DNA of 64,000 nt from Hungateiclostridiaceae bacterium UBA1305 (GCA_002307275.1 DBTX01000021.1:8432-72431), one strand, 5' to 3'. Shown: positions 6,412-23,812, counted from the stretch's first letter. Program-made: numbers and translations. Notes: generated by a model from the letters alone, not told the origin.

Positions 6412-8802
6412 TCATCTGTCAGTGCCGGCTTCGTAATCGTCAAGTGAAGAATAACTCAGGTCAAAAATGATCGTATCGCCGGTATAGAACAGCGTACTGT
6501 CTTTAGGTCCGCCCTCAGCTGTCCACTGGTCTGGATTATAGTCAAAAACTTTAACTCCGTTCTTATATCCTTCTATTGTGAAATTAACCATTATGAGACC
6601 CTTTGTCAGTATAATGGATTGATCCACCTTGCCATTTGCAACAATAGGTAACCCCTTGCGAACGGCTTTTGTCGTCGGCATTAATGCAAAGCGTCCATTC
6701 CAGGTTGAATTTTTTGAATCCGTTATGGTTCGGACATCATAATTTAAAATAAGCTGGGATAGTCCTCCTGTATTGAAACAGTCATAGGTCATGGCGAAGT
6801 GATCTCTGCTGCTGCCATACTGTATCAGGTATTCGCTGTCAAGATCATAATAAAGGTCAACCTCATAAGCATTTCGTATGCTATCGCTCTTAAGATCCTT
6901 CATATAATAGAATCTCGGCTTTATTTGAACAGTGTCGGCATCGTCGTTCAAACCTCTGCTTGTCATACTGAAATAGAAAGCATAACCTATCCTGGTCAGT
7001 ATATTTTTCGTCGGGTGGCTGTCGACTGGCATCGTACTCACCGGATAATATGCGCCTGTAGATATGCCGGATGCATAATCCGGATTCCAGAAAACACTTT
7101 CCCACTGCCTGTCTGTAATATCTGTGATTCTGAAGTTCTGCAGGCTGCATTCGATATATATTTGTTCTGTGGCTGTAATCATATTGCCTGCCCGGTCCCT
7201 GGCGTATACATGAAGGTACCAGCTGCCAATCCTGTTCTGTGAGGTATGCACCATAACTGCCGTATTAACGGTAGCCGCCGCCCCCTCTGTTGTAGTACGG
7301 CCAAGGTTTGACATGCTGGATATATCTGCCGGGAATGTTGCGTCTTGTGACCATGAATATCTGCTTTCTGCAATACCGGAGAGGTTATCTCCCAACGTCA
7401 GATTAATCTTATTCCCTGCCTCGTATATAAACCAATGCTGTCCGGATTTGAAATCGTCCTGATTGGACCAGTTGAACGTGATTGTGGGATTAACTTTATC
7501 TATGTGGTACGATCCGGAAGACGAGGCATAATCTTCATCAGGTGCGGAAGTGTCGGCCGGGGTATCGGAATCCCAGGAGCCTTGTGGAGGGGATCCAGAG
7601 GACCACGTTTTCGTTCCTGCGTTCCAGCCGCTCAATTTCGCGGCCAGTTTATTCACTCCCGTCCGGCTCAAAGTAACAGTAGTGTTGTTTGTGATATTTG
7701 CAGTTGCGGCCAACGGAGGTGTGCCGGAAACATTGATTTGTCCGATACCCCAATCCTGGCTATAACTCCAGTTCATGGATCTATGACTTGTGGAATAGCA
7801 GGAAGCTTTATGGGTATGCTCAGTTATTCCGCATATTAAATCCCCATCGGCGTTATAACAGCCTGAATGGTGCTTATGCTCTGATAAAGTGCAGGAAAGG
7901 TATTTATATGAATAATCCCTGCTGTTATATCCGCCAATTGTCGCTGTGGTATTCCCATCGACGTAAACCCGGACCTGAAGATCCGTATTCCTCCATGTGC
8001 AGCTGTCGGGTACAAATTTGATCATACCGGTAGGTATAACAACTTCAGGTTCTGGCGGTTCTTCCACCATTTCCGGCACGACATTATAGTTATCCGGAGC
8101 AATCGGGACAATCAAATACCAAAGGTGCCCGGATACCATATGCCACATTCGGCCAACACCAAAGCCATTAGCCGTTGGCGGCTGCATAACGTGGACGTAA
8201 TCAGCCCAGGTTAATGATGGATCAGGCGGGGTACGCCAATTTGTGCCTAAAACGTTATGGTAGAAAGCAAGGATACCATTTTCGATGTTATCCTGGTATC
8301 TCTGACCAATGCCAGGCGTATCAGAATCAAATGATTTATCGCGGCATAGGCTTATTGTCCGTGAGTTATTCCAAGGATATAGAATCCAAATTCTCTGTTC
8401 AAATGTCTTACTTGCATCCCATGCATCCATTGGCGCGTAAAAATTCCAGAAAGTATCTGCTCCCATTGTCTCACCTAACACATCAGGGACGCCGCTGCTA
8501 AATGACGAAGCACTGCCATATACCATCGTATACCCTAAATCAGCGGCAACGTCACTATGATAGATTTTACCCGTTATTCGATTATCCCAGCTTCCCCAAT
8601 TGCCAACTGCTAAATTGCTATTTAAACTTTTTCTGCTTGGTCTATTTTTTTCTTCAAAATACTCGTAGCCCAAGGAACCATTTGCATCTAAAAGTGCATC
8701 TCCTACCGTAGCAGGCTTTTCTAATGCCGTATATGCGGGAATTTGTGGCATAGCAAAAAAGAGGAAACATAAAAATAGAACGGTAATTATTTTTTTTATC
8801 AT
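6412..8802 (-). CDS. Large exported protein of unknown family; last gene of the Tad-like operon
   Basis: 796-aa ORF with N-terminal signal peptide MIKKIITVLFLCFLFFAMPQIPAYTA and a duplicated Cx3EHxHx3C motif at residues 304-336. I recognise no catalytic family. Confidence 0.8.
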   Translation of the reverse strand: MIKKIITVLFLCFLFFAMPQIPAYTALEKPATVGDALLDANGSLGYEYFEEKNRPSRKSLNSNLAVGNWGSWDNRITGKIYHSDVAADLGYTMVYGSASSFSSGVPDVLGETMGADTFWNFYAPMDAWDASKTFEQRIWILYPWNNSRTISLCRDKSFDSDTPGIGQRYQDNIENGILAFYHNVLGTNWRTPPDPSLTWADYVHVMQPPTANGFGVGRMWHMVSGHLWYLIVPIAPDNYNVVPEMVEEPPEPEVVIPTGMIKFVPDSCTWRNTDLQVRVYVDGNTTATIGGYNSRDYSYKYLSCTLSEHKHHSGCYNADGDLICGITEHTHKASCYSTSHRSMNWSYSQDWGIGQINVSGTPPLAATANITNNTTVTLSRTGVNKLAAKLSGWNAGTKTWSSGSPPQGSWDSDTPADTSAPDEDYASSSGSYHIDKVNPTITFNWSNQDDFKSGQHWFIYEAGNKINLTLGDNLSGIAESRYSWSQDATFPADISSMSNLGRTTTEGAAATVNTAVMVHTSQNRIGSWYLHVYARDRAGNMITATEQIYIECSLQNFRITDITDRQWESVFWNPDYASGISTGAYYPVSTMPVDSHPTKNILTRIGYAFYFSMTSRGLNDDADTVQIKPRFYYMKDLKSDSIRNAYEVDLYYDLDSEYLIQYGSSRDHFAMTYDCFNTGGLSQLILNYDVRTITDSKNSTWNGRFALMPTTKAVRKGLPIVANGKVDQSIILTKGLIMVNFTIEGYKNGVKVFDYNPDQWTAEGGPKDSTLFYTGDTIIFDLSYSSLDDYEAGTDR

Positions 8803-8819
8803 TACTTGTCCAACCCCTG

Positions 8820-9743
8820 TTATTTCTTATAAACTACTACACAAGTCGACCATCCTGCCCCTTGTACATACACCTTATATCCAGAAGTGTAAAAATACTT
8901 TTCTATCAACTCATAATCAATATCCTCTTTCAGTCTTGCATAATCCATTATTTGATTTACAAAATCACTGCTGAATTTACTTTTTAGTATCTTTTCTGCT
9001 TCCGATAATTGATCATCTATGGAATACCTGAAATGAACCATCATATACAAAACAGCATTTTCATTCATAACTGCCGAAATAGTATGGACTTCTGGTATTG
9101 TAAACCCATTAACAACGTTGGATTTATTCGTATCTATTACCGTCCTCTTTGTCGGATCAATAAGGCAGATAATCATTTTCGACGCTTCGGCTCTCGTCGC
9201 CTTGTCATCAGATCCAAAATCGCCATTAAGATAACCGTTTACAATGCCTTTGCTATAGACTTTTAAAATGTACTCACGATCCTTGGAAGCAGAAAATTTA
9301 TAGTAGTCTTTTATTAGGCTCATATACGCATCCAGATTTTCCGGAAATGTTTCCTTCATCCCCCTGGCTATAATCCTTGCGATCTCGCCCCTGGTGATCT
9401 TCTTCGAATAATCGTTGAATTCTCCGTCTTTAATCAGTCCCAATTCCTTTGCCTTGCTGATATATGGGTCAGCCCAACTCTTGCCAGTGCCCTGCTGCGG
9501 ATTATTCCCCAACGCAATAACCACAAACTTTATCAGTTGGTCCACCTGAAGGTTGTCCTTCGGGCCATATTTTCCGTTGCCGTATCCTACACAGATACCT
9601 TTTTCTGACATTACATCAACGTATGGTTTGAACCAATCCGTACCCTTCACGTCATTGAAGATTATCGGTTGTCCAGCGGATACAGCAGCCCCCAACACGG
9701 TAAAAATAAAAACAATGATTAATAATACTACTGACTTTTTCAT
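8820..9743 (-). CDS. SLH-domain cell-wall-anchored protein
   Basis: The start is placed at the in-frame ATG (MKKSVVLLIIVFIFTVLGAAVSA signal peptide) preceded by AAGGAG. FNDVKGTDWFKPYVDVMSEKGICVGYGNGKYGPKDNLQVDQLIKFVV and a second block ITRGEIARIIARG are S-layer-homology-like. Confidence 0.72.
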   Translation of the reverse strand: MKKSVVLLIIVFIFTVLGAAVSAGQPIIFNDVKGTDWFKPYVDVMSEKGICVGYGNGKYGPKDNLQVDQLIKFVVIALGNNPQQGTGKSWADPYISKAKELGLIKDGEFNDYSKKITRGEIARIIARGMKETFPENLDAYMSLIKDYYKFSASKDREYILKVYSKGIVNGYLNGDFGSDDKATRAEASKMIICLIDPTKRTVIDTNKSNVVNGFTIPEVHTISAVMNENAVLYMMVHFRYSIDDQLSEAEKILKSKFSSDFVNQIMDYARLKEDIDYELIEKYFYTSGYKVYVQGAGWSTCVVVYKK

Positions 9744-9795
9744 ATGTTCACACTCCTTCGAATTTTCCAACCACTCGGAATAAAGAAAAAATAAA

Positions 9796-10848
9796 TCATG
9801 GCCTGCATACGGGACATGCCCTGTATCCTTCCGACGCAGCCTGCTTTTTCGAGTTATAGGTCCCCTCAATTACGGTAATACGGCTGCAGCCTTCCTTGTG
9901 GAAGTACTTTACGCCATTATAGGTACTTCCGATTAAATTGTCTTTCACTGTCAGCTTCGTACCGCCAAAGCCAAAAGTATTATAAATTTTATCCGTTCCG
10001 GGTATGGTAAACCCCTGCAGGAACGATATGAAACAAACATCATCAATGGTATTGTTCCATGTATCCTCCTCAACCATGGGAATATTATAGATGTATCCCT
10101 GCCCATATACCTGTGATAAATAGTTCGCCCTGCTTGTATAGTATTCCAGCTGCATTTGAATCAGCTGGATGATGGTCTGCCTCCGAATGCTGTCGAAGTT
10201 GACTGAAGATGTAAAAAGATTCACCGGGTATATTGCAGCAAGTCGTTCCCTCTTGTCCTGAGTCCAGGCAGCGGTTGAATGATCAAATACATATGCAGAG
10301 TCATCCAGCGTAAAATTGACAGTCAGATTACTGCCGTTATCATAATAGGAATAAGGAATTTTAGGCATCCATACTTCCCTTGTTTCGTATCCGGCTGCAT
10401 CAGCATTGTAGACATTCTGCCATGTGTGTACATACAAGCCGTCATAACCGACTACCATCTGCACAGGCAGATACGCTTTCAAAGAATCCTGCCCTACTTT
10501 GTCTTCTTCTACACCAAAGTTGATGTATACCGTTTCCAAAAACCTGTCCGTCGCTGCCTGAAGATTCAATTCAATATCCTTCGAACTCTTGTGCGCCCCC
10601 TCAAAATACTGATCCCCGGAACTCATAACAGAGCTTCTGCCAGAACTCAAGCCGGAACTTAAACCGGCATTCGATCCAAAATTCTGTACCAGGGCTATTG
10701 TTGCATCCTCACTGGCATTATACATGACCTCATCATAAACCTGTTCCCAGCTCAAAGCCTCAATTTGCCGGTGCTGCTCTATATCGGCGGAGACAGAGAA
10801 CGGAAGGAGCGCCAGTAAAAAGAGTAACGCTAAATCAGTAATCTTCAT
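9796..10848 (-). CDS. Exported protein with a C-terminal Ada-type zinc-knuckle-like motif
   Basis: 350-aa ORF with signal peptide MKITDLALLFLLALLPFSVSA. The C-terminus is FHKEGCSRI...SEGYRACPVCRP. Its start overlaps the upstream gene by 14 nt. Confidence 0.8.
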   Translation of the reverse strand: MKITDLALLFLLALLPFSVSADIEQHRQIEALSWEQVYDEVMYNASEDATIALVQNFGSNAGLSSGLSSGRSSVMSSGDQYFEGAHKSSKDIELNLQAATDRFLETVYINFGVEEDKVGQDSLKAYLPVQMVVGYDGLYVHTWQNVYNADAAGYETREVWMPKIPYSYYDNGSNLTVNFTLDDSAYVFDHSTAAWTQDKRERLAAIYPVNLFTSSVNFDSIRRQTIIQLIQMQLEYYTSRANYLSQVYGQGYIYNIPMVEEDTWNNTIDDVCFISFLQGFTIPGTDKIYNTFGFGGTKLTVKDNLIGSTYNGVKYFHKEGCSRITVIEGTYNSKKQAASEGYRACPVCRP

Positions 10849-11356
10849 TCGTCACCATTCCTCCGGCCTTTGAAAACAGGAGGGAATTCCCGGCCTCACC
10901 GCCTAAAGCCTGTATGAATACCATCGTCCCCGTTTTGGATTTATTGACAACTTCAACACTGATATTGTCGCCCTGGTGCATTCGATACTGGTGTGTCGGG
11001 TCTGCATCCATCTCCTCAATAATTGTATTGATCGGAAACATCTCCTCCACTACCGTAAAGGTATGCTCCGGGGTATATCCCGGATCGGTTGCCTGCAACG
11101 GGTAGTATACTTTTTCCGTATGCACGATCCGGATGTCGTAAACATTTTCCGTATTTGATAGCGTTTTTACAAAATCCTCATACATATCATCGTCAATATA
11201 CCCTTTATGCCTTATATCATTTGCAAATTCCTGTGTCTGCATGTTGACATACTTGAAAACCTGCTGGTCGATAATCCAGTAAGCACGGTACGCAGGCACT
11301 ATCGTTAACAAGATAATTGCAACAATTGACGCGAATAAGGTTGAAAGAGGATTCAT
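10835..11356 (-). CDS. Bitopic membrane-anchored protein, unknown family (minor-pilin or assembly candidate)
   Basis: 173-aa ORF with a single N-terminal TM helix (LFASIVAIILLTIVPAY). RBS GGAGG lies upstream. It sits within the operon. Confidence 0.72.
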   Translation of the reverse strand: MNPLSTLFASIVAIILLTIVPAYRAYWIIDQQVFKYVNMQTQEFANDIRHKGYIDDDMYEDFVKTLSNTENVYDIRIVHTEKVYYPLQATDPGYTPEHTFTVVEEMFPINTIIEEMDADPTHQYRMHQGDNISVEVVNKSKTGTMVFIQALGGEAGNSLLFSKAGGMVTNEDY

Positions 11357-11450
11357 ATGCAGCCTCCGTTGTACACTGTATCAATAGAGAAAACAATCAT
11401 CCGGCATTAACCCAGCGCTAACTCATTTATGATTCATCACTATAAGCACT

Positions 11451-11530
11451 GGCTATTATTTCAGTCAGCTATTACTGCAGTCAGTTGTTACTGCTGTCAG
11501 TGTTATTACAATCAGCTGTTACTGCTGAAC
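11451..11530. repeat. Five tandem units of about 16 bp echoing the stop region of the pilin-like gene
   Basis: The units are ggctattatttcagtca, gctattactgcagtca, gttgttactgctgtca, gtgttattacaatca and gctgttactgctgaac. The last is the gene's own end, with TAA being the complement of 11519-11521. Confidence 0.8.
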
Positions 11531-11935
11531 AAAACTGATAGCTGTAACAATGCCGTTATCATTCGTTGTGAGCGTTGATTTAAAAGTTCCTACAGGGTTA
11601 ATGTATTCACCACTGCCAGAATCGGTAATATCATATTTATTATCTGAATCGTAGTCCACTTTTGCTGCTACCATAATAGTTCTTACACTAACATCCAATA
11701 CGTCGGTCTCGCCATACATTCTCACTGCATTTACAACACTGCTGCCGGATACTTCGGTTCCGTTGTAGGCATCATATTTCTTGGAAGTGATCACCTGGCT
11801 GATTCCCTTGATATCGCTCTCAGAGTTTTTGGTAATGTCCGCACCCTGTCCAAACAGGGCAATCGCGATGGCTATTGCCGCAACAGTAATCAGTACGGCG
11901 GCTCCGAGCTTGATGATTGTTGTAACATTGTTCAT
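11519..11935 (-). CDS. Putative filament subunit / pilin-like protein (non-canonical)
   Basis: 138-aa ORF. It has a short polar N-terminus followed by a hydrophobic helix (MNNVTTIIKLGAAVLITVAAIAIAIALFGQG) and then a beta-rich Ser/Thr/Asp domain. It lies directly downstream of the platform gene, and the RBS is GGGGGATAGG. Confidence 0.55.
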   Translation of the reverse strand: MNNVTTIIKLGAAVLITVAAIAIAIALFGQGADITKNSESDIKGISQVITSKKYDAYNGTEVSGSSVVNAVRMYGETDVLDVSVRTIMVAAKVDYDSDNKYDITDSGSGEYINPVGTFKSTLTTNDNGIVTAISFVQQ

Positions 11936-11965
11936 TTCCTATCCCCCCATAAATTAATGAATTTA

Positions 11966-14029
11966 TCACATTAACTGCTTCTGTATAGACGAAAAAGCAG
12001 TAAATGACGAAAAAATAATCGGCAGTGCCATATATAGAAGCAGAACGGCATAAACCGGAATAAAACCAATCAACTGGCCAAACTCAATTTTCTTGTTAAT
12101 CTGCTGCTTATTGGATTCCTTTCTGCTTTCCTTGTAAAACTCCCTTTCCAGTTCCAGAGCATCAAATGCCGCAATCAGGCTGATATCCTCATTTGCCATC
12201 TGCAAATTATCAATAATTTTGACAAACGGTTTAAATTTTACGTCTTCTTTCAGCCTTTCGAGAGCCAGGTTCTGATTCTGGAAATTGGTCAGGCACAGTT
12301 CTATCGGTGCCCTGAATATATTGGCAAATTCCTTCATCCATTCCAGTACGACCTTAACATCCACATTGTCGTGATGCATCAGAAGAATGATGATCGTATG
12401 GAATTGAAATACCTCATCCTCCATATCAACCTTTCTGAGCGACGCCTGAAAGGTAAGCAATATCATCGGGAACCAGGATGCAGCACCCGCAATGATCAAG
12501 GATAGCAAGACCTCCCATAACCGGATAGTTTCTTTTTTACTGTCAATGATTTTTAAGCAGATTCTTTGTGCTGTCAGCTCCTGATCTTCTCCCTCATAGC
12601 TCATGGAAACAAGTTCCGCTTTGGCAGCAGCCAGTATATCCTCTGCCTTTGAGAGTCCCATGCTTCCGATTTCTCCAATGATGGAAGCATCCAGTTCCCT
12701 GATTTTCTTATCATTTAGAAGTTCTTCCTCATCCAACCTGCCCATCATCCGGAAAAAGTTGGCATTATCGATTCCATAGGCAGTGTCCGCCATAATTTTT
12801 TCAACATTCGTACGATGCCCGGAGGAGAACACAGCAAGCATGATGATAAAGACAGAAATAGCGTATATCAGTCGCCGCAGGTACAGACCCTCGACCGTCA
12901 TGGCAGATCCTGCATCATCTTCCAGAAAGGATTTCAATTTGCGATACTTTACGGTATTCTGCCTTGGAGTAAAAATGTTCACAAAAAACCGTATGAAGCC
13001 TATTCTGTTGAGGTAATAATCCCAGGTCTTTTTATAACATACTTTCACTTTTTGTTCCGTCTTTTGGATCTGAACAATGAATACATAGCATACAATAATA
13101 ATCAAAAAAATGGAGCATCTTAAATAAAACCCGGTTGCTGAATCATAAAATGACGATACAATTGGGAAGCCAGACCTCATCCATGATTCGATTACCGGCG
13201 GCAGCAGCAGCGGAAACAGCACAATGATGTTCAGGCCGCGCAGCCAATAAGCCAGTTGGTTCTTTTTAATGATTTCTATCTGAATTTCTTCTGTAATATA
13301 GTTCAGATTTTTGATATACAGAGAAATGCCCTCAATCTTTTTATCTCCAAAATCCTGTACCAGGTAAGAGAAGCCGGCAAATATCTTCAGGAATTTATTT
13401 GAACATGTCTCGTAATACTCCTTCAGCATATACTCCGGGTTTGCCCCCGTCAGAATATTGTAAATCCTCGTGCCCTGATTCAACATTTCACCTGCTGTAC
13501 GTAAATTAGCCTGCTTAATGGCCTCGCCCACCATGGCCGTAGCATGGTAGAAATGCTTGACATCACCTACATAGTCAACCATGGCCGCCAGCAACCTTGT
13601 ATCGGAATTGCCTGCAAAGCTTTGTATGATCATACTGTTGAGGTAAATGCAGCAAATGCCGAATAACAGCATTGTCCAGAGGTCCGCTTGATACAGCCGG
13701 ACAAGCACGAAGAACGTGACAATTGATGTCAGGATAGAGCCGAATCCAAGCAACACGGATTTTGTATCCAGATTGGTTATCGAAGAATTACCGCCAGGAG
13801 AAAGCTGCGACCTTACCCACCTCAAATAACTGCCTATGACCGGTTTTTCATAAAGGGATTCACATCCGGATCCTGTCCAAGTCTTCCTGCTTAAGCCTCT
13901 GGTATTGATCCTTATATAATTACGGTTGGCGTTTTCAAGCCTGTTTGCTATAAATAAAGCTGCCAATGCGATAGCAATCACAAGCCCGCCGGCAGAAAAC
14001 AGTAATATTTTCGACACCGCTATCCGCAC
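11966..14029 (-). CDS. Polytopic inner-membrane platform protein, TadB+TadC-like (two GspF/T2SSF-like modules)
   Basis: 687-aa ORF with two repeats of a helical cytoplasmic region flanked by TM helices. It lies between the ATPase and the pilin-like gene. The start is uncertain: GTG at 14029 or GTG at 14017. Confidence 0.6.
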   Translation of the reverse strand: MRIAVSKILLFSAGGLVIAIALAALFIANRLENANRNYIRINTRGLSRKTWTGSGCESLYEKPVIGSYLRWVRSQLSPGGNSSITNLDTKSVLLGFGSILTSIVTFFVLVRLYQADLWTMLLFGICCIYLNSMIIQSFAGNSDTRLLAAMVDYVGDVKHFYHATAMVGEAIKQANLRTAGEMLNQGTRIYNILTGANPEYMLKEYYETCSNKFLKIFAGFSYLVQDFGDKKIEGISLYIKNLNYITEEIQIEIIKKNQLAYWLRGLNIIVLFPLLLPPVIESWMRSGFPIVSSFYDSATGFYLRCSIFLIIIVCYVFIVQIQKTEQKVKVCYKKTWDYYLNRIGFIRFFVNIFTPRQNTVKYRKLKSFLEDDAGSAMTVEGLYLRRLIYAISVFIIMLAVFSSGHRTNVEKIMADTAYGIDNANFFRMMGRLDEEELLNDKKIRELDASIIGEIGSMGLSKAEDILAAAKAELVSMSYEGEDQELTAQRICLKIIDSKKETIRLWEVLLSLIIAGAASWFPMILLTFQASLRKVDMEDEVFQFHTIIILLMHHDNVDVKVVLEWMKEFANIFRAPIELCLTNFQNQNLALERLKEDVKFKPFVKIIDNLQMANEDISLIAAFDALELEREFYKESRKESNKQQINKKIEFGQLIGFIPVYAVLLLYMALPIIFSSFTAFSSIQKQLM

Positions 14030-16053
14030 CTCCCTGAACTCTCTTCCAAGTTCCCGAATTCCTTGTCCAGGAAGGCGGCAAACAGTTTTTGATCCTCCCT
14101 CAGCATGGCTTTCGCCATCGCCTTTCTATTACTATCGCTTATCCTGTTCTTCACGACATAGGCGTTTTCAATCAGATCATATTCTATGATGTTGCGGTAA
14201 GTGTATGAATGTCCGCCAAGCATTCTTTCATAATAGCGGTACTGAGCTTCCTTGATCAGTCTGTCAAGGTTACTCGGGTCGTTGTCGTTGCTGCTATTAC
14301 TGCTACTGCTGTTACTACTGTTGCTGTTATTTCTGTTGTTGCTACTGTTGCTGTTATTGCTGCTGTTATTGCTGCTGTTACTGCTGTTGCTGTTATTGCT
14401 GCTGTTGCTGCTGTTGCTGCTGTTGCTGTTATTGCTGTTGCTGTTACTGCTGCAGTTGCTGTTACTGCTATTGCCGCTATTTTCATTACTGTCATTATTT
14501 GTTTTATAACTGTTCCTGCTGCAATCGTCTATATCGAAATCACCGGGTTCAAAGGGAATACATTCTGTTATCCTCTCAATATAACGCTTGCCGGATATAT
14601 CTTTTTCCATGTGTATATCAAAATTCAACACACTTATGATTTGCTCCTCTGCGATACGTTCATTATTAAATACATTGGTTTTAAGCAGAGAATTACGCAG
14701 GGACATTACCAAATCGGGAAACTTCTTTGCATGATGAGAAAACAGGGTAAACAGGCTTGCAACCTGTGCCGTTTGTATCATATATGCCGCTACCGGATCT
14801 GTGGCTACCTCGCCCACGATCGTTACGACGCCGTCGGTTTTTTTCAGTACGTCAAGCCCGGCCTGTCCGGTTATCGCGTCTGTTTCCTGGATGGTAACAA
14901 TGTTTCTGTTGGGATAGCTTTTGCGCACATGAAGTTCAAAAGCCATTTCCAGGATCCGGAGGGTATACGGCGTATAAATATGTTCTATCATGGCGCGCAG
15001 AAGTGTAGTTTTCCCTGATCCCTGGGCGCCCGTGACACTTGTGTTCATGCTTCCTTTCACGAGAAATCCGATCAGTTCAATAACAAGATCACAGTTCTTA
15101 TCTTTGATAAGTCCCGGAAGTGATATGTCCGGAAGATCGAATTTACGGATGAAAAAGCACCATGTTTCACAGAAGTCCGGCCTCAATACCACGACCCTTG
15201 AACCGTCCTTCAGCTTATTTACTTTGAAGCCGTCCACTTTGGAAAGCTGACCAGGATAGCCATATTTATACACGTTTTGGCATACCCTTTGAAGTTCGTC
15301 ATAGCTGCCAAGGGAAAGGAATTTTAAATGAATGCTTTTCCCTTGAAAATACAGCCAGATACTTTCATAGGAACGAACCGCTCCGGTATTGGCCACAGAT
15401 TCATACTCACTTTTGTGTTCCTGGACAAACGATTCCGGCAAACCGTTCACACCGCAGCTTAACCCATCGACCTGCATATCCATAATGTCGTCGATGACAT
15501 TATAGCCTTTATAGAGTGAATACACTCTTTGAACAATGATGTTATATTTGTCTTCATAAGTTATTACCGGTGATTCCCGTTTATAGATACGGTTGATGTC
15601 ATCCATGTCTATAAAGAAATACTCCACATCCTCAGTTTTTCTAAGCAAATCAAGATCATATTTCCTGATCAGGACAGAAAGTGCCTTATAGCCGTATTCT
15701 TTCTTGTACACATGCAGAAGGATGTCGAATTTATCCTGCACCGATAAATGCTCTACCCTTTCAAATGGAATAATATTATTGATTTTAATTGAAGTGATAT
15801 CGTAATATTGCTGCAGCAGTTCCTTGATAAACTCCTTGACAAATTCTTTATCCGGTTTGGAGCCATATATGCAGTCGTTCAGAGCAGCCTGCAGCCGTGA
15901 CTTTTTATTTTGCTTTCTTTCAAGCTCAACGCTTGTTATACCCAAGTCAAACAGCTTCAATTTCATCAGTTCATCAACTGCCTGCTGAACAAATTCCTTC
16001 ATTTGCGGTATATTGTAATTTAGCATTTTGCCGGTGTCTATCGTTAATTCCAT
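14020..16053 (-). CDS. Long CpaF/TadA/VirB11-type secretion ATPase with an Asn/Ser-rich insert
   Basis: The start is set at MELTIDTGK, with GGAGGG upstream. It has Walker A GAQGSGKTT, IVGEVATD (Walker B/Asp-box region) and FSHHA (His box). An N-terminal extension of about 330 aa precedes the core. The C-terminal region holds a run of about 75 residues of N/S. Confidence 0.85.
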   Translation of the reverse strand: MELTIDTGKMLNYNIPQMKEFVQQAVDELMKLKLFDLGITSVELERKQNKKSRLQAALNDCIYGSKPDKEFVKEFIKELLQQYYDITSIKINNIIPFERVEHLSVQDKFDILLHVYKKEYGYKALSVLIRKYDLDLLRKTEDVEYFFIDMDDINRIYKRESPVITYEDKYNIIVQRVYSLYKGYNVIDDIMDMQVDGLSCGVNGLPESFVQEHKSEYESVANTGAVRSYESIWLYFQGKSIHLKFLSLGSYDELQRVCQNVYKYGYPGQLSKVDGFKVNKLKDGSRVVVLRPDFCETWCFFIRKFDLPDISLPGLIKDKNCDLVIELIGFLVKGSMNTSVTGAQGSGKTTLLRAMIEHIYTPYTLRILEMAFELHVRKSYPNRNIVTIQETDAITGQAGLDVLKKTDGVVTIVGEVATDPVAAYMIQTAQVASLFTLFSHHAKKFPDLVMSLRNSLLKTNVFNNERIAEEQIISVLNFDIHMEKDISGKRYIERITECIPFEPGDFDIDDCSRNSYKTNNDSNENSGNSSNSNCSSNSNSNNSNSSNSSNSSNNSNSSNSSNNSSNNSNSSNNRNNSNSSNSSSSNSSNDNDPSNLDRLIKEAQYRYYERMLGGHSYTYRNIIEYDLIENAYVVKNRISDSNRKAMAKAMLREDQKLFAAFLDKEFGNLEESSGRCG
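14278..14505. repeat. Imperfect trinucleotide (GCT/GTT/ACT)n tract encoding poly-Asn/Ser
   Basis: The plus strand reads ...gttgctgctattactgctactgctgttactactgttgctgtt... for about 230 nt. Three additional track ORFs in other frames and strands (14209..15018, 14252..14509, 14256..14495) also run open across it. Confidence 0.9.
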
Positions 16054-16118
16054 CAGTACCCTCCTGCCTGTCTTCAATGTACCCTTTGGGAAGCTGATAT
16101 TGCAACCTTACAAATCAC

Positions 16119-17003
16119 TCACCTGTACACACCGAACATTTTGTCAAACATCGTCTTTTGGACCAGCGGGTTATAGGTGTTTACATCATCAAGTCTGAAC
16201 AGGCTGATGATTTTGCTGATAATGACATCGAGACATTTCATAAAGTCAGCATCGGTATCCGGCATTTTCTTTTTCATCTGGATATCCGTAAAGTATTTGA
16301 GTATATCATGCTGGTTTATAGCATCCATGAACTTTACATTCCTTGGTATGACGAATAGCTCGCCATAATAGTCAAACTCCCTGCGGATCCGTTGGATATC
16401 GAATATTGAATTTTCATCATAATTCCCCAAAATCAGCAAATGCGGCTTATCCTCTATCACAGGATTCCACTCCCTGCGTTCAAAGTACGTCCGCAGAACT
16501 TCCATATTCTGACTTAGACTGACGATCAGAATATCAGCCAGATCAAGGGGCTTCGTAGACAATTCTCCATATCCTGCGTTTATATCGAGTATGACGAATT
16601 CATACGCTCTACGGGCACAGTTTACAATATAGGTGATCTGTTCAAGCAGACGCCCGCTTGAATGACTATCCCTCCGGGTCGTTCCCAAAAGAAGCTCCAG
16701 TCTGTCCGGGATAAAGATATTTGCATAATCCCTGAAGTTGGCGGCGCAGAGCTGGTTTGTCCTTGCGAGCTTCATCAGGGCATCCATTCCGGATTCATCA
16801 AAGATATTGGAGGTAGTATTGCTGTTGGAACTATCCGCAAAAAATGCATTCTCCAGATTACTCTTGCTTATACTGTTGTGCATCAGCAGGATCCTGAAAG
16901 TACGTGTAAGCGCCAATCTCACGGCTATAGCCATAGCATTTGAGGTGTTGCAGGTTTGTCCGTGAAAAGGTGACCATACTCCGATCAACAATGATTTCAT
17001 CAC
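16119..17003 (-). CDS. TadZ/CpaE-like ParA/MinD-fold protein with a degenerate P-loop
   Basis: 294-aa ORF. IGVWSPFHGQTCNTSNAMAIAV sits where MinD/ParA proteins carry GxKGGxGK[ST]. Later blocks FVILDINAGYG and ADILIVSLSQNMEVL fit the fold. It overlaps the upstream gene by 4 nt. Confidence 0.65.
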   Translation of the reverse strand: MMKSLLIGVWSPFHGQTCNTSNAMAIAVRLALTRTFRILLMHNSISKSNLENAFFADSSNSNTTSNIFDESGMDALMKLARTNQLCAANFRDYANIFIPDRLELLLGTTRRDSHSSGRLLEQITYIVNCARRAYEFVILDINAGYGELSTKPLDLADILIVSLSQNMEVLRTYFERREWNPVIEDKPHLLILGNYDENSIFDIQRIRREFDYYGELFVIPRNVKFMDAINQHDILKYFTDIQMKKKMPDTDADFMKCLDVIISKIISLFRLDDVNTYNPLVQKTMFDKMFGVYR

Positions 17004-17893
17004 CGTGTTCTACCTCCTTGTGCCTCTTTTGTGGCTGCTTGACTATCTGTGGTTATATTCTGCAAATTTCCGTCCCCCACGTCCTGCCTGACACCTGTAG
17101 ATGCGGATGTGGATACAGATGGAGATGCTGCAGGTTCCGATTTAGCAGACTCAACTGAAGATATTGATGCTGCAGGTATTGATTTAGCTGGCCCGGTTGC
17201 AGCCTGTGTCCCAGGTGTCGTAATCTTAACCGGTACATAGGTGACCTCGGAAGCCGGCTGTTTCTCATCAAGGTACAGCAGCGATTCTATATGCCCAAAA
17301 CCAGCAGACTGTTCTGCTATTGCGTGGTTGATAAGAGCCCTCTCGGCTGTTGATACCTGTACAATTGCTTTATTATCCGTTAATTTGATGACTTGTTTTT
17401 TAGCCAGAACAATGAAGGTATCCCCATTGGATCTGACCATTTCAACATCGATCCAGTCACCGGCCTTTACCGTGTCTGCTACAAGATAGCCTTGCAATGC
17501 ATAATCCTTCAGTCTGTCATCCGGGTTAACCGAGCTTTGCGAAGACAGTATTCTCGAATCCGTCAGTACCTCTTTCATATCAATGACAGCAGCTGCTCTC
17601 TGGCCTGTTATCATCCCGATGTCTATCATAGAATTGGTTGGTACTTCTTCCTGATTTCTCTCTTCCAGTTGAAAGAATTCAGGCTTCAGTTCGTCCCCCT
17701 TTTCGATTCTTTGTACAGACACCAGAACCTTGGTCTTTTTCAGATCATCAGCTGTTTGTATAGGAAGACTCACACTTTGGATCTTTCCTGCATCCACAAG
17801 CTTGTTATAGAGAAAGTATCCCCCTGCAAGGAGAATAACTGCCGCCATAAAACCGGATAAAAATATGAAAAATTGCTGTTTTCCTCTGCTCAT
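17000..17893 (-). CDS. CpaB/RcpC-like SAF-domain pilus assembly protein
   Basis: 297-aa ORF with an N-terminal TM helix (FFIFLSGFMAAVILLAGGYFL) followed by KVLVSVQRIEKGDELKPEFFQLEE...ITGQRAAAVIDMKEVLTDSRI, which is SAF/CpaB-like. The C-terminal tail is low-complexity and A/S/T/P-rich. Confidence 0.72.
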   Translation of the reverse strand: MSRGKQQFFIFLSGFMAAVILLAGGYFLYNKLVDAGKIQSVSLPIQTADDLKKTKVLVSVQRIEKGDELKPEFFQLEERNQEEVPTNSMIDIGMITGQRAAAVIDMKEVLTDSRILSSQSSVNPDDRLKDYALQGYLVADTVKAGDWIDVEMVRSNGDTFIVLAKKQVIKLTDNKAIVQVSTAERALINHAIAEQSAGFGHIESLLYLDEKQPASEVTYVPVKITTPGTQAATGPAKSIPAASISSVESAKSEPAASPSVSTSASTGVRQDVGDGNLQNITTDSQAATKEAQGGRTR

Positions 17894-19107
17894 ACTGTTT
17901 TGATCCCTCCGTCCGCATCACTGACTTTATGCGGATATAATCTTCTATAGCGAAAAGTATCACGCTCGCCGTCATATCCCACCACATCAAGCACTTCCAC
18001 GACTTTGAAGTCCCTGAGGTAAATAACAGCATTGATACCTCTGCCCAACATTTCTTTGATTGTTTTCTCACTTTCTGCAATATTGGCGCTCCTGCTCAGA
18101 GTAAAAATCCTGGTTAACGCTGTTTCGGCACTTTCAGAATGTATCGTGGCAGACCCTCTGCGCCCTGAAAATATTGCTTTGACAAATTCCAATGCTTCAT
18201 CTCCTGAAATATCGCCGACACAATACATATCCATCGGCATAACCAGAGCTTCCCTGAGCATACCCTTCAGAGTGACAGACCTGCCGTCCCCGTTTTGTTT
18301 TATGATCCGCTGCTCCATGCAGAAGGGCTTATCCGGATAAATCTCGGCTTCCGGCTCTACAATAAGCACCCGCTCCATCTCAGGAAGGCTGTTGATAAAC
18401 GCGCGCAGTAAAGTTGTTTTGCCAGCCGCTCCCTTTCCACAGAAAAGTACTGACGCTTCTCCATCTGCGAGATCTTTGAGCATATCCATCAATTCCTCGT
18501 CCAGCATGCCAAGCGCTTTTAAATCCTCCAGCTTGTAGCTTTCCCTGCGATGCTTCCGGATGCTGACCGCAGGCCCCGCAATATTTCCGGGATTGATGGA
18601 AATACTGATCCTTAATCTTAGTTTTTCATCAGCTACTCTATAGCAGTATTCATCTTGATTTAAAACACCGCCGTTTCTCACAATAATCAGCCTGCAATAA
18701 GTATCAAACATTTTTATGCTGCTAAAGTTGACAGGTGTTTTGCTACGGACACCGTGACGTTTGATCGAAAACTGGTTAAACCTCGACCCGTCGATATCCG
18801 TGATATCTTCATCCTCAATATATCTCTGAAGCTCTCCATAGCCGGACATGAAACCAATCACTCTGAGGACCAGTTCATCCCTGAAAATTCCATAATTGTA
18901 CTTGTGAATTTCAATATCCTTGATGATCGCTGATTCAAGCAGCCTTTTACCCGACCGGCTGCCATCAGCCTCCGTCACAAGCTCCGGTGAATCTTTCAGG
19001 ATATTATTTGTAATACCGCACACAACGGAATCGATATCCTCGAAGTCTTTTATCCCATTTGTTGAAGCTTCATGAACCAGCTTCTGATACGACTTTACAA
19101 CAGGCAT
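17890..19107 (-). CDS. CpaF/TadA/VirB11-type secretion ATPase (short paralogue)
   Basis: 405-aa ORF with Walker A GKGAAGKTT and His box GSATIHSES. The Walker-B-proximal segment reads VGDISGDEA. RBS is GGGGGA. Confidence 0.85.
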   Translation of the reverse strand: MPVVKSYQKLVHEASTNGIKDFEDIDSVVCGITNNILKDSPELVTEADGSRSGKRLLESAIIKDIEIHKYNYGIFRDELVLRVIGFMSGYGELQRYIEDEDITDIDGSRFNQFSIKRHGVRSKTPVNFSSIKMFDTYCRLIIVRNGGVLNQDEYCYRVADEKLRLRISISINPGNIAGPAVSIRKHRRESYKLEDLKALGMLDEELMDMLKDLADGEASVLFCGKGAAGKTTLLRAFINSLPEMERVLIVEPEAEIYPDKPFCMEQRIIKQNGDGRSVTLKGMLREALVMPMDMYCVGDISGDEALEFVKAIFSGRRGSATIHSESAETALTRIFTLSRSANIAESEKTIKEMLGRGINAVIYLRDFKVVEVLDVVGYDGERDTFRYRRLYPHKVSDADGGIKTV

Positions 19108-19138
19108 GCCTTATTCCCCCAAAATTTTTTCATAATTC

Positions 19139-20881
19139 CTATTTCCCCGGAATTGCGCCCGATGACTGAAACACATTACCAAAGATGGCCGACCGGAATT
19201 TTTGCAGCAGCTTCAAATCAGATATCAACCCCATCCTTACTAAAAGCCGGATATACGCCTGCTCAATGTCCTTTTCCATGCGCACGGCATAAGCGCCGTT
19301 CAGATTTCTATGCAGCAAACGCCTCCTGCTATATGGAATTTCCCCGAGAAAATTTCCATGAACCGCTTCTCTGGCTTCATCCGGAGTTATACTGCTGGTT
19401 TTGTCATATTCGAAAAGAACAAATTGAGTACGGTGAACACAAAGGTGCTGCTTCTCCTTCAAGAATTCAATATAAGTGTTGAATTCCCGCAGCTGATCCA
19501 CATCTCCCCGAAGTGCCGCAATATTCATATCTGATCCGAGGAGTGCCGCCAGCGTAAACGCATCGTATATGGATCTGTTAACAAGAAATATTGTAATATC
19601 AAACCTTCGATAACACTTCTCAATCAATTTTGGAACAATATCTTCATTAAAATATTCATAATTCTCCAACCGGTAATTGCCTGTCAGCACATGCAGGTTT
19701 TTCAGATCCTTTCTTTGTACGGCTGACTGCTGCAACACCTCATCATCCAATGAGCCCTTTTCCAGTGCGTCCATGACAAAATCCAATCCTGAACGTCCAT
19801 ATACTCCTCCCTGTGATAATTTCACAGGAAACTTCTTCAGGTTAAGAAACAAATCCGCTTTCGGTGCCAGCAAATCCAAATCTGCCAGAAGCACCTCGCT
19901 TTTTGTATGTTTCGCTGCCATATATGCCAGCTCACAGCCGAATTCTGCATTATCCCATACGGTAATCACAAGCTTTCTGAAAATGGCATGCTGCTTTGCT
20001 CCAAAACCTGTACTTACAGCATTTTCTTCAGGTTCACCCTGCACAGTCCGGTTGGCTGTATGAGAATTTTCCGGATTGTTACCGCTGTGCAATTTACCGT
20101 GCAGAGGGCACAAAGCCTCAAGCTCCTTTTGCAGAAGCGCCGCACTCTGATAGCGTTCAGATGCGTTTTCGCGGGTACATTTACATATGATTGCTTCCAT
20201 TTCCGGCGAAAGCTCCTCAACAAATTGCCGGACAGGTTTTATTCCATATGGTGAATCCGCCGGATTCTTCCCTGTCAGCAAATGATGCAATGTTACTCCC
20301 AGACTGTAAATGTCGGAGGCTGCACTGGTCTGCCCCCTGCCATATTGTTCCGGAGCCGCAAACCCCCGTGTACCTATATAAACCGTATCCCCTCCGGACC
20401 GTGCTTTATATTCGCGCGCTATCCCGAAATCAATTAGTTTAAGTGTTCCATTGTCCGTCAATATGATATTTGAAGGTTTCATATCCCTGTAGATGATCGG
20501 ATGCGGTTCGAGGGTATGGAGGTAATCGAGCGCCCTGCATAATTGTACAGCCCATTGTGTTACTGTTTCCTCCGCTATTCGGCCTTCTGCTTCAAGTTTT
20601 TTGTCAAGAGATATTCCATCTATATAATCTGAAACCATGTACAGTTTCCCATCCTGCACAAGTATATCGAATAATCTTGGCAGTGCGGGATGTTCCAGCC
20701 GTTTTAAAAGCTTTGGTTCGGCCAGCAGATCGACATCGGTACCATCCCTCCGGATGATTTCCTTAATCGCCCAGAAGGTATCGGTATTGATATTCTGAGC
20801 CAGATAAACCGTACCCATGCCACCCTGACCCAGTATCTTCAATATTCTATAGCGCCCGTCAAAAATGTCGCCCGCCTGCAT
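19139..20881 (-). CDS. Hanks-type Ser/Thr protein kinase fused to a P-loop-less ParA/TadZ-like domain
   Basis: 580-aa ORF. The kinase signatures GQGGMGTVYLA, AIKEI, HPIIYRDMKPSNIIL, DFGIARE and GFAAPEQ are present. The C-terminal half (LVITVWDNAEFGCELAYMAAK...ITIFLVNRSIYD) resembles ORF 16119..17003. Confidence 0.85.
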   Translation of the reverse strand: MQAGDIFDGRYRILKILGQGGMGTVYLAQNINTDTFWAIKEIIRRDGTDVDLLAEPKLLKRLEHPALPRLFDILVQDGKLYMVSDYIDGISLDKKLEAEGRIAEETVTQWAVQLCRALDYLHTLEPHPIIYRDMKPSNIILTDNGTLKLIDFGIAREYKARSGGDTVYIGTRGFAAPEQYGRGQTSAASDIYSLGVTLHHLLTGKNPADSPYGIKPVRQFVEELSPEMEAIICKCTRENASERYQSAALLQKELEALCPLHGKLHSGNNPENSHTANRTVQGEPEENAVSTGFGAKQHAIFRKLVITVWDNAEFGCELAYMAAKHTKSEVLLADLDLLAPKADLFLNLKKFPVKLSQGGVYGRSGLDFVMDALEKGSLDDEVLQQSAVQRKDLKNLHVLTGNYRLENYEYFNEDIVPKLIEKCYRRFDITIFLVNRSIYDAFTLAALLGSDMNIAALRGDVDQLREFNTYIEFLKEKQHLCVHRTQFVLFEYDKTSSITPDEAREAVHGNFLGEIPYSRRRLLHRNLNGAYAVRMEKDIEQAYIRLLVRMGLISDLKLLQKFRSAIFGNVFQSSGAIPGK

Positions 20882-21148
20882 CCAAATCCCTCACAAATCA
20901 TGGAATATTGTCATATTTTCGGCTTTTGTAGCTGTATAACAATAATGGGTATTTCTATTGTCCTTTAACGCGTCCTATATTATCACAGTCTTACAAAATT
21001 TACCATTATATTTTGCAGTTTTTTATTTATTATGCAGGTAATAGATAGGCAAGAGGCTTATCAGCACTGTAAGAGTGAATTTTCTACTGCAGAAAATAAA
21101 AGAATAAGACGGGAAATAATGCAGAAAGATGATTCATTTTAAACTGAT

Positions 21149-21422
21149 GGGTCACTTCTGATTGAGGTCCGGTGTATATTGGATTGCTCCTGATTGAGGT
21201 CCGGTGTATTGGATTACTCCTGATTAATATCCGGTGTATTGGATTACTCCTGATTAATATCCGGTGTATTGGATTACTCTTGATTAATATCCGGTGTATT
21301 GGATTACTCCTGATTAATATCCGGTGTATTGGATTACTCTTGATTGATGCCCGGTGTATTGGGTCACTCCTGATTGATACCCGGTGTATTGGGTCACTCC
21401 TGATTGAAGTCCGGTATATATT
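21149..21422. repeat. Nine phased units of about 30 bp: eight echoes plus the genuine 3' end of the PflX-like gene
   Basis: Units start at 21149, 21181, 21211, 21241, 21271, 21301, 21331, 21361 and 21391. Three central units are identical (ggattactcctgattaatatccggtgtatt). The last unit contains the gene's stop, TGA being the complement of 21394-21396. Confidence 0.95.
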
Positions 21423-22497: not shown

Positions 22498-22608
22498 TTT
22501 TCCGCTTTTATTGCTTTACAACACCTATAAATAAAAATATAATAAGGTTAATTATCATACATGTCAATATAACAGGTGAGTTATACTAAGGGCGTGGAGG
22601 ATTGGAAT

Positions 22609-23559: not shown

Positions 23560-23812
23560 TTCCATATAGGATGCACTTCTGCAATATCCGTAACTCTATC
23601 TGTTTTACTTTTCCATTGCAAAGTGTAAATAAATAGTGCTAATTTATTATATCTCCGTAACTCATTTTACGATATAATTCAATTGGAATATTATTGTACT
23701 ATTAAGTTTCTTTTGTTACTATATTTCGAGTATTATATGTTATCATTGGATTTTTGGAGATATTACACAGTTTATATGGTAGTAGCAGTTTATAGAAGGA
23801 AGGTTGATTTTG

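Follow-up and report, generated by a model that had tools for sequence, protein, structure and literature searches.

A divergent Tad-like gene module of Firmicutes as a candidate wall-spanning surface filament

We analyzed a 64,000-nucleotide stretch of DNA from Hungateiclostridiaceae bacterium UBA1305 (the window), in which positions 6412-20881 hold a single cluster of eleven intact open reading frames (ORFs), g1 to g11, all on the minus strand. We favor, with reasonable though far from full confidence, the reading that this cluster specifies a member of the Tad/CpaF branch of type IV filament machines (the type IV filament superfamily) that is highly divergent and adapted to monoderms, and that its products build a wall-spanning surface filament for contact or adhesion. 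An origin of the cluster in the Tad lineage, as a filament or secretion apparatus, had been proposed in the initial annotation and is supported by CpaF-like ATPases, a SAF/CpaB-like protein, degenerate ParA/MinD domains, a platform protein of which one half resembles TadB/TadC, and the order of the genes. The eleven co-directional ORFs described there were all recovered, with a single correction of length: the SLH protein, given as 308 amino acids (aa), has 307 aa when read from the ATG at 9743. The features of the cluster are as follows.

g1, 19139-20881, minus strand, 580 aa: predicted cytoplasmic Hanks Ser/Thr kinase with a degenerate TadZ-like domain of the ParA/MinD fold
g2, 17890-19107, minus strand, 405 aa: CpaF/TadA-type secretion ATPase, apparently a lineage-specific second ATPase
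g3, 17000-17893, minus strand, 297 aa: bitopic SAF-domain protein, CpaB/RcpC-like
g4, 16119-17003, minus strand, 294 aa: degenerate MinD/ParA-fold protein, TadZ/CpaE-like
g5, 14020-16077, minus strand, 685 aa: long CpaF-type ATPase, predicted conserved motor of the family
g6, 11966-14029, minus strand, 687 aa: polytopic platform-like protein with about 8 transmembrane (TM) segments
g7, 11519-11935, minus strand, 138 aa: candidate filament subunit
Tandem array, 11462-11525, no strand: 16-bp unit in 4.1 copies in the g7-g8 spacer (Tandem Repeats Finder, TRF)
g8, 10835-11356, minus strand, 173 aa: N-terminally anchored, conserved core member
g9, 9796-10848, minus strand, 350 aa: N-terminally anchored or exported, conserved core member
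g10, 8820-9743, minus strand, 307 aa from the ATG at 9743: exported SLH-domain wall-binding protein
g11, 6412-8802, minus strand, 796 aa: secreted protein with an Athe_2463 domain

Tad-like core of the cluster

Pfam matches were obtained for only five of the eleven products, namely Pkinase in g1, T2SSE in g2 and g5, SAF in g3 and SLH in g10. NCBIfam adds similarities to CpaB, TadA, VirB11 and FlaI that stay below threshold, and its scan returned no match for g4 or for g6 to g9.

Two secretion ATPases with Walker A motifs had been claimed, and both are confirmed: GKGAAGKTT is found in the 405-aa g2 and GAQGSGKTT in the 685-aa g5, both proteins reach the Pfam T2SSE cutoff of 24.9 bits, and CpaF is the best relative in each case. 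The T2SSE match of g2 scores 80 bits (1.8e-22), and its best solved relative in the PDB is Caulobacter CpaF (E=6.5e-25 over aa 61-394), with VirB11 and FlaI ranking behind. For g5, CpaF chains are the sole PDB matches (E=5.4e-6 over aa 261-513). This CpaF-type hexameric-ATPase homologue is encoded immediately before the platform protein g6. Homologues of g5 share 37-76% identity across loci, those on plasmids are annotated as TadA or CpaF, and g5 appears to be the conserved motor of the family. Its residues ~520-600 form an N/S-rich low-complexity insert, arising from tandem 9/39-nt repeats at 14289-14478 (TRF), which is specific to the window and has no counterpart in the homologues of L002, L004 and L011; the antisense strand there yields a spurious 269-aa hydrophobic ORF (14209-15018). 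A second ATPase as a departure from textbook Tad loci also holds for the window. That is to say, g2 occurs only in L001, in L006/L007 (L006, L007 and L008 are one contig of a metagenome-assembled genome, MAG) and in L009, and is absent from L002, L004, L011 and L012. Its best plasmid match is the TadA-like gene of the Tad module on Vallitalea pVpro (36.9% identity), and g2 counts as a lineage-specific addition.

The platform protein g6 has no match in Pfam, NCBIfam or PDB sequences, even when family profiles are used. An exhaustive search with a hidden Markov model (HMM) nevertheless delineates a family of 939 cluster representatives at 50% identity, 497 of them at E<=1e-30 and nearly all about 670 aa in length, where a word-indexed homologue search had yielded only 14 matches and badly underestimated family size. 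To place g6, a 91-sequence family profile was compared using hhalign with a 15-sequence alignment of Tad-type T2SSF proteins, made up of TadB and TadC from a canonical Sphingobium locus, PF00482-bearing sphingomonad TadC homologues, and the TadB/C-like proteins of two Clostridial plasmids. Residues 384-680 of g6 are colinear with an entire TadB/C protein (88% probability, E=3e-6, score 55), and one reversed and 20 block-shuffled controls score between 16 and 27, with a maximum of 26.6. The alignment supports reading the C-terminal half of the 687-aa protein as one TadB/TadC-like T2SSF unit. The N-terminal half also aligns colinearly, but its score of 27.8 against the control maximum of 26.6 is not significant, so that for this half a T2SSF-like nature is no more than suggested. 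An hhalign internal-repeat test finds no significant likeness between the two halves. An AlphaFold2 (AF2) model built from the 91 sequences, with a mean confidence (pLDDT) of 86, presents the same layout in both halves, in which five short helices are followed by one very long helix ending in a TM segment; this model has no Foldseek match in the PDB. The TadB+TadC fusion put forward in the initial annotation is therefore supported for the C-terminal half and not for the N-terminal half, and remains a reasonable but unproven reading. Two earlier attempts were less informative: an AF2 model built on 12 sequences was of low quality (pLDDT 55), and its meaningless Foldseek matches were discarded, and an hhalign comparison of g6 with a two-sequence alignment, built from the two matches of a pVpro TadB search, reached a probability of only 13%.

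The SAF/CpaB-like bitopic protein that had been described corresponds to the 297-aa g3, which passes the Pfam SAF cutoff (28.2 bits against 21), lies below that of the CpaB equivalog TIGR03177 (28.3 bits against 71), has a single N-terminal TM segment and is kept in related loci. Likewise, a ParA/MinD-fold protein with a degenerate P-loop is found in g4. It has no Pfam match of its own, and a seven-sequence profile matches MinD 6riq (E=7.8e-4) and, more weakly, a ParA family protein. The alignment with MinD spans the P-loop and Walker B regions, and the Walker A lysine is replaced, such that W-S-x-x-x-G-Q-T carries GQT instead of GKT. The g4 orthologue in L004 has a weak AAA_31 match. When tested as TadZ/CpaE, the ParA-like proteins of the window reach no curated cutoff and have lost the Walker A lysine, and degenerate ParA domains of this kind are conserved throughout the family.

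Inspection of g1 bears out the claim of a Hanks kinase as the first gene. Residues 1-280 form a Pkinase domain (173 bits, 8.3e-51) with all catalytic motifs intact (VAIK-like K39, YRDMKPSN, DFG and APE), and no TM segment is predicted. The C-terminal domain (aa ~290-560) weakly matches the g4 family profile (hhalign E=1.6e-4) and also the first gene of L002 (491 aa, 1.75e-8). The arrangement recurs at L021:3680-5089, where a Hanks kinase and a TadZ-like domain are joined in one 469-aa protein. The C-terminus of this protein matches the CbiA-positive first genes of the plasmids pPPM1a (2e-18) and pBsph (1.6e-16); CbiA (ParA) matches are seen in the pPPM1a protein and in its C. botulinum plasmid homologue, in the latter above the Pfam cutoff. 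We thus take the g1 C-terminus for a second degenerate ParA-fold, TadZ-like domain. The kinase domain is limited to close relatives of the window and to L021, which has the kinase without g2, and it, too, counts as a lineage-specific addition.

Candidate filament subunits and wall proteins

The products g7, g8 and g9 each begin with a short polar N-terminus, followed by a ~20-residue hydrophobic helix and a globular domain, and their genes follow that of the platform in small-to-large order. Pilins and pseudopilins follow the platform gene from small to large in comG, type II secretion system (T2SS) and tadE-G operons as well. Of the three, g7 lies directly after the platform gene, has a globular domain of ~100 aa and has paralogues in other loci; among its closer relatives the segment LGAAVL(L/I)T at positions 10-17 is invariant. 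In g8 the TM segment spans aa 4-22, and no family was matched in Pfam or NCBIfam. Homologues of g9 are detected across loci by tblastn, and its family profile matches nothing among PDB sequences. Based on architecture and position, g7 to g9 are candidate filament subunits. Metal-knuckle motifs had been noted in the distal proteins, and such Cys/His motifs do exist; the C-terminal H/C-x-C-x2-C of g9, however, is confined to part of the family and has no counterpart in the homologues of Paenibacillus, C. botulinum and Lysinibacillus.

Inspection of the full 64 kb agrees with the earlier observation that both a Flp-type prepilin and a prepilin peptidase are lacking. No product matches Flp_Fap, and the six-frame translation holds no credible small ORF with a G-XXXX-EY motif, which the 138-aa g7 does not carry either. 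No G-x-G-D-[VIL]-[KR] peptidase motif is found, and g6 is the sole protein with at least four predicted TM segments. The products g7, g8, g9 and g11 match no Pfam family even at E<=10, with TadE, Flp_Fap and the pilin families included, and accordingly the distal proteins do not present themselves as ordinary TadE/TadF/TadG proteins or as a standard Flp.

The last two products are directed to the wall and beyond, and each has an ordinary Sec-type signal peptide. The SLH anchor that had been claimed is found in g10 (Pfam, 68 bits, 6.2e-19), and across loci the anchor domain at the g10 position matches the wall type of the host. SLH is found there in the window, L004, pBsph and L024, whereas Paenibacillus pPPM1a has Cu_amine_oxidN1 and the C. 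botulinum plasmid has choline-binding repeats. In g11, residues 109-229 match NCBIfam NF047340 (Athe_2463; 43.4 bits against a cutoff of 36), a domain that takes its name from an abundant extracellular Caldicellulosiruptor bescii protein (PMC5865380). Toward its other end, g11 has C-terminal ~300 aa that are common to the large proteins encoded at the same position in other loci, as BLASTP matches illustrate (L016_881, 2e-34; a 1066-aa protein of pPPM1a, 1.5e-15; a 1037-aa protein of pBsph, 7e-11). The large proteins at this position in pPPM1a and pBsph carry DUF5704.

Distribution, genomic context and DNA transfer

A gene-neighborhood comparison revealed the same gene order in 14 lineages, conserved down to ~25% protein identity. 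At the front stand a gene for an N-terminal domain joined to a ParA-like domain, then SAF, in some loci a small ParA-like protein, the g4-type ParA-like protein, the long ATPase and the platform. After the platform come a ~140-aa protein with or without a paralogue, a ~175-aa protein, a ~330-aa protein, a wall-binding protein and a large secreted protein. Loci with this order are as follows.

Metagenomic loci: L002, L004, L011, L012 and L021-L025
Plasmid loci: Paenibacillus polymyxa M1 pPPM1a, a Clostridium botulinum plasmid, Butyrivibrio proteoclasticus pCY186 and Lysinibacillus sphaericus pBsph

Homologues of g6 were found on 35 PLSDB plasmids from Paenibacillus, Clostridium, Lysinibacillus, Butyrivibrio and other hosts, with C. 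argentinense plasmids among the carriers, and are annotated "hypothetical protein" in all 25 of the plasmid matches listed. Close relatives of the version in the window are confined to 4 of 185,579 species genomes, all of them Bacillota MAGs; the full set of eleven genes, g1 and g2 included, is kept in two other MAG species (L006/L007/L008 and L009) at 55-93% protein identity. No relatives were found among viral contigs in a scan of IMG/VR. The idea of an undescribed system thus stands insofar as no published characterization was found in the literature searched, including in searches on DUF5704, on CpaB/TadZ/VirB4 in Clostridia and on the plasmid names. It does not stand as something peculiar to the window, given a family of about 940 clusters that reaches plasmids of cultured Bacilli and Clostridia.

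The window derives from a 111-kb metagenome contig of the Joint Genome Institute (JGI), on which flagellar genes lie on the upstream side of the operon. This late flagellar set occupies window positions 22576-24703 and beyond (a FliD_N-only 297-aa protein, FlgN, FliS, FliD, FlaG and flagellin) and is separated from the operon by an alpha/beta hydrolase gene and a radical-SAM gene, both syntenic in L006. The window and its MAG relative share these upstream neighbors, and the module is therefore chromosomal here. A 30-bp unit repeated 8.8 times (21154-21419, 90% matches) partly coincides with the 3' end of the radical-SAM ORF (21394-22497), reaches into the spacer upstream of g1 and, when translated, yields a spurious extensin-like ORF (21084-21467). 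Within the operon, the overlaps described between adjacent ORFs are confirmed as 4 nt at 17890/17893 and 17000/17003 and as 14 nt at 10835/10848. The one at 14020/14029 depends on the choice of start codons; in the JGI annotation of this contig the two proteins have 677 and 683 aa, and their genes do not overlap. The 16-bp array reported in the intergenic gap is real (TRF period 16, 4.1 copies) and overlaps the g7 stop codon, but it is not part of the system. It is not conserved in L006, a relative of 85% identity, and the g7-g8 spacer that holds it has no significant RNA structure (z = -0.73); a role as a regulatory element was rejected on both counts, and the array is probably incidental.

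Genes for conjugation accompany the module in a number of its other settings. Four of the 14 lineages (L002, L004, L012 and L025) carry VirB4-like, TraC-like or coupling-protein genes no more than 10 kb away, and four further loci sit on large plasmids. By contrast, L011, L021 and L023 have housekeeping-like chromosomal contexts. The pBsph-like plasmid p1593 is experimentally conjugative and mobilizes IME8 (PMC13239906). On pBsph itself, a "pilus assembly ATPase" was remarked upon as possibly conjugation-related, the canonical genes of a type IV secretion system (T4SS) are of low homology only, and VirB4, VirD4 and VirB6 homologues are carried as well (PMC4363355). MOB-suite types all 35 plasmids with a g6 homologue as non-mobilizable; measured against the conjugative p1593 (PMC13239906), the mobility of such plasmids seems to be systematically under-called. 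Peptidoglycan hydrolases occur in or beside several loci. Taken together, these settings agree with an organelle for surface contact or adhesion that is often carried by conjugative elements, and they suggest as its likely role surface or cell-cell contact in the form of adhesion, aggregation or, on conjugative elements, mating-pair stabilization.

These same contexts invite a bolder proposal, which we regard as possible but rather unlikely. It holds that Gram-positive conjugation has its missing surface filament in the g3-g11 module, which would be a mating pilus or contact apparatus, derived from Tad and spanning the wall, on conjugative megaplasmids and integrative and conjugative elements of Bacilli and Clostridia (pBsph, pPPM1a, the C. 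botulinum and C. argentinense plasmids and pCY186), with a new class of pilin that needs no dedicated prepilin peptidase, and that it was domesticated under Hanks-kinase control in chromosomal lineages. An alternative that we judge unlikely treats the machine as a DNA-transfer device, either part of or a substitute for the Firmicute mating channel, or a pilus for DNA uptake comparable to Com or to the Flp pilus of Micrococcus, with the copy in the window domesticated or stranded. The adjoining VirB4-like, TraC-like and coupling-protein genes argue for it, as do the conjugative relative of pBsph, the low homology of the canonical T4SS genes on pBsph and the non-mobilizable typing of all 35 carriers. 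The ATPase g2 points the same way by name. The best NCBIfam model for it, and likewise for g5, is TIGR03819, a TadA family conjugal transfer-associated ATPase of actinobacterial helicase/secretion neighborhoods; this name ties Tad-type ATPases to conjugal transfer, although the likeness is judged on the ATPases alone and both lie far under the cutoff of 373 bits (g2, 1.3e-32 and 113 bits; g5, 5e-6 and 26 bits). On the other side, the VirB4, VirD4 and VirB6 homologues of pBsph could themselves explain its transfer, three loci have the housekeeping-like contexts named above, the core contains no recognizable DNA-binding or translocase component, and the window lacks VirB4, coupling-protein and related genes. 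A lead to the "tip" locus of pXO16, an unconventional Firmicute transfer system (PMC9673590), was dropped, as no Bacillus cereus-group plasmid carries a g5 or g6 homologue.

Signaling genes form a second recurrent element of the surroundings. A protein with DUF6382 and FHA domains is encoded directly after the g9 homologue at L011:10350-11786; with the kinase-TadZ fusion of L021, it indicates that Ser/Thr phospho-signaling recurs in distant versions of the module. GGDEF genes lie just downstream of the module at L015:22984-24093 and L016:24402-25442 (P. polymyxa pPPM1a and the C. botulinum plasmid), and the C. botulinum locus has a signal peptidase I gene nearby (25996-26484). Inside a further related locus, L022:13655-18477 (JGI 3300051063), is a diversity-generating retroelement (DGR) comprising bAvd, a template repeat (14192-14301) and a reverse transcriptase. 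Its variable repeat (16418-16527) falls within an 881-aa DUF6273/fn3 gene, and all ~12 mismatches between the two repeats are at template adenines. The diversification of a surface fn3 protein by this element points to ligand binding.

Relation to known machines and competing readings

The closest known counterpart is the Tad/Flp system (Aggregatibacter tad, Caulobacter cpa), with which the cluster shares a CpaF/TadA-type ATPase, a CpaB/RcpC-like SAF protein, TadZ/CpaE-like ParA folds and a TadB/TadC-like unit. Gene order runs in parallel with cpaB-tadZ-tadA-tadB/C-tadE/F/G, for which the Sphingobium locus served as the canonical example. In contrast to Tad loci, the window lacks a Flp pilin, TadV peptidase, TadD, a secretin and any TadE, TadF or TadG detectable by profile. 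Its platform is a single 687-aa protein missed by the T2SSF HMM, its ATPase is ~200 aa longer at the N-terminus, its TadZ-like proteins lack the Walker A lysine, with one of them fused to a Hanks kinase, and wall-binding and large secreted proteins are added.

Nearer in host type are the Tad-like modules of Clostridial plasmids (Vallitalea pronyensis pVpro and Alkaliphilus pB6464), which have in common with the window a monoderm Firmicute host, SAF, and downstream SLH and giant surface proteins, but differ in having separate TadB and TadC and in lacking the g5 and g6-g9 families. On pVpro (L014, NZ_CP058650.1 20371-55360), Gram-positive T4SS genes (PrgI family, VirB4-like ATPase and M23 hydrolase) lie beside a Tad-like module that is closer to the canonical type. 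TadB and TadC there give weak T2SSF matches just under the Pfam cutoff, and an 80-aa protein gives a weak N_methyl match. SAF, SLH, 1,904-aa and 997-aa proteins are also encoded, and MOB-suite types the plasmid as non-mobilizable.

Archaeal type IV pili, the archaellum (FlaI and FlaJ) and the Com pilus resemble the cluster in a single-polypeptide platform with two modules of helical bundle plus TM segment, in the absence of a secretin and in possible pilins without Glu5. The comG operon is ordered as ATPase, platform, major subunit and minor subunits, and the order in the window is alike. In contrast, CpaF outranks FlaI among the PDB matches of g2, g5 does not match FlaI, and the window has neither a class III signal-peptide profile match nor a peptidase. 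With regard to the kinase, the threonine phosphorylation pathway PpkA-Fha1 of the T6SS (type VI secretion system) offers a general analogy as a phospho-regulated trans-envelope machine. Both have phospho-signaling proteins within the machine locus, here a Hanks kinase in the window and in L021, or an FHA protein in L011; the kinase in the window differs in being fused directly to a TadZ-like positioning ATPase fold.

From these parallels a plausible mechanism may be drawn for the wall-spanning filament. The motor g5 would drive g6 to pull g7 out of the membrane and into a filament, in which g8 and g9 would be minor or priming subunits. A periplasm-like collar may be formed by g3, while g4 and the g1 C-terminus could position the machine. 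On its way across the thick wall and the S-layer, the filament might be guided or capped by g10 and g11. In the chromosomal lineage seen here, the TadZ-like protein would have acquired an active Hanks kinase domain, and the second CpaF-like ATPase g2 would have been added. Such a fusion, along with the added g2, suggests phospho-regulated assembly and possibly separate motors for extension and retraction.

Several observations weigh against a Tad-type filament. With respect to the platform, only one weak Pfam T2SSF match arose among 10 distant members of the g6 family scanned, and the N-terminal half of g6 stays at the level of the controls. The T2SSE score of g5, at 25.6 bits, is barely over the cutoff, a small margin for the proposed motor. 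Regarding the subunits, none of the Pfam and NCBIfam profiles for pilins, Flp, TadE and class III signal peptides matches g7 to g9, the g7 alignment contains no Glu5, in the wider g7 family the glycine gives way to alanine or valine, and a small residue at the putative cleavage site is not strictly conserved. No Peptidase_A24 is annotated in the 14 related loci, with one elsewhere in the genome being possible. Searches of the window by tblastn with L002, L004, L012 and L014 proteins found no VirB4-like or coupling-protein genes, and a mating role is not to be assumed here. No filament has been seen so far, and the literature searched holds no experimental characterization of the module or gene set.

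The same gene order also lends itself to a monoderm protein-secretion machine akin to the T2SS, in which a short g7-g9 pseudopilus would push substrates such as the g11-type large proteins through the wall. We hold this to be improbable. The grammar of the operon is indeed T2SS-like (ATPase, platform, major pseudopilin, minor pseudopilins, largest last), large secreted proteins are always encoded downstream, and the Athe_2463 domain of g11 derives from an abundant extracellular protein of Caldicellulosiruptor bescii (PMC5865380). However, the ordinary Sec-type signal peptides of g10 and g11 mean that a dedicated exporter is not obviously needed, and both ATPases are closest to CpaF rather than GspE.

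It is very unlikely that the cluster is not one system at all and instead represents a mosaic of g1-g2, as a canonical Tad remnant, with g3-g11, as a plasmid module, or else the relic of a decaying integrated element. The g1 kinase domain and g2 are missing from most related loci, on plasmids the nearest relative of g2 is part of another, canonical Tad module that has a TadB and a TadC of its own, and both ParA-like domains have lost the Walker A lysine. These points are offset by eleven ORFs that are all intact, by the retention of the 11-gene arrangement, g1 and g2 included, in two other MAG species at 55-93% protein identity, by the family-wide conservation of the degenerate ParA domains and by the independent recurrence of the kinase-TadZ fusion in L021. 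An anti-phage defense island around the Ser/Thr kinase and ATPases was rejected as exceedingly improbable: g1 does match PD-T4-6, mad6 and PglW in PADLOC and MADS6 and PglW in NCBIfam, but these matches cover mainly the generic kinase domain (the mad6 alignment extends to aa 416), the other nine proteins scanned (g10 was left out) give no defense-family match except a 25-residue P-loop match of g5, and in most lineages the kinase is no part of the conserved core.

Type IV filament surveys depend on profiles that recognize the ATPase, the T2SSF platform and the pilin (PMC6668835). With a platform missed by Pfam T2SSF and subunits missed by the Pfam and NCBIfam pilin profiles, the family has probably been missed by such surveys, judging from Pfam and NCBIfam in place of the surveys' own profiles. 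We read the module as a new, divergent and uncharacterized branch of the type IV filament superfamily, widespread in Firmicutes, with a plausible mechanism and a function suggested by context. Its about 940 clusters extend to plasmids of familiar species, among them mosquitocidal L. sphaericus (pBsph), P. polymyxa M1, C. botulinum and C. argentinense, and several questions become testable in culturable strains. One is how Tad-type machines adapt to the thick monoderm wall, with host-matched SLH, choline-binding or stalk anchors and the conserved large protein as candidate adaptations. Others are whether filaments serve mating contact in Gram-positive conjugative elements, and whether subunits that have no class III signal peptide can form a filament in the absence of a peptidase. 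In the lineage of the window, the kinase-TadZ fusion would couple Ser/Thr signaling directly to filament assembly.

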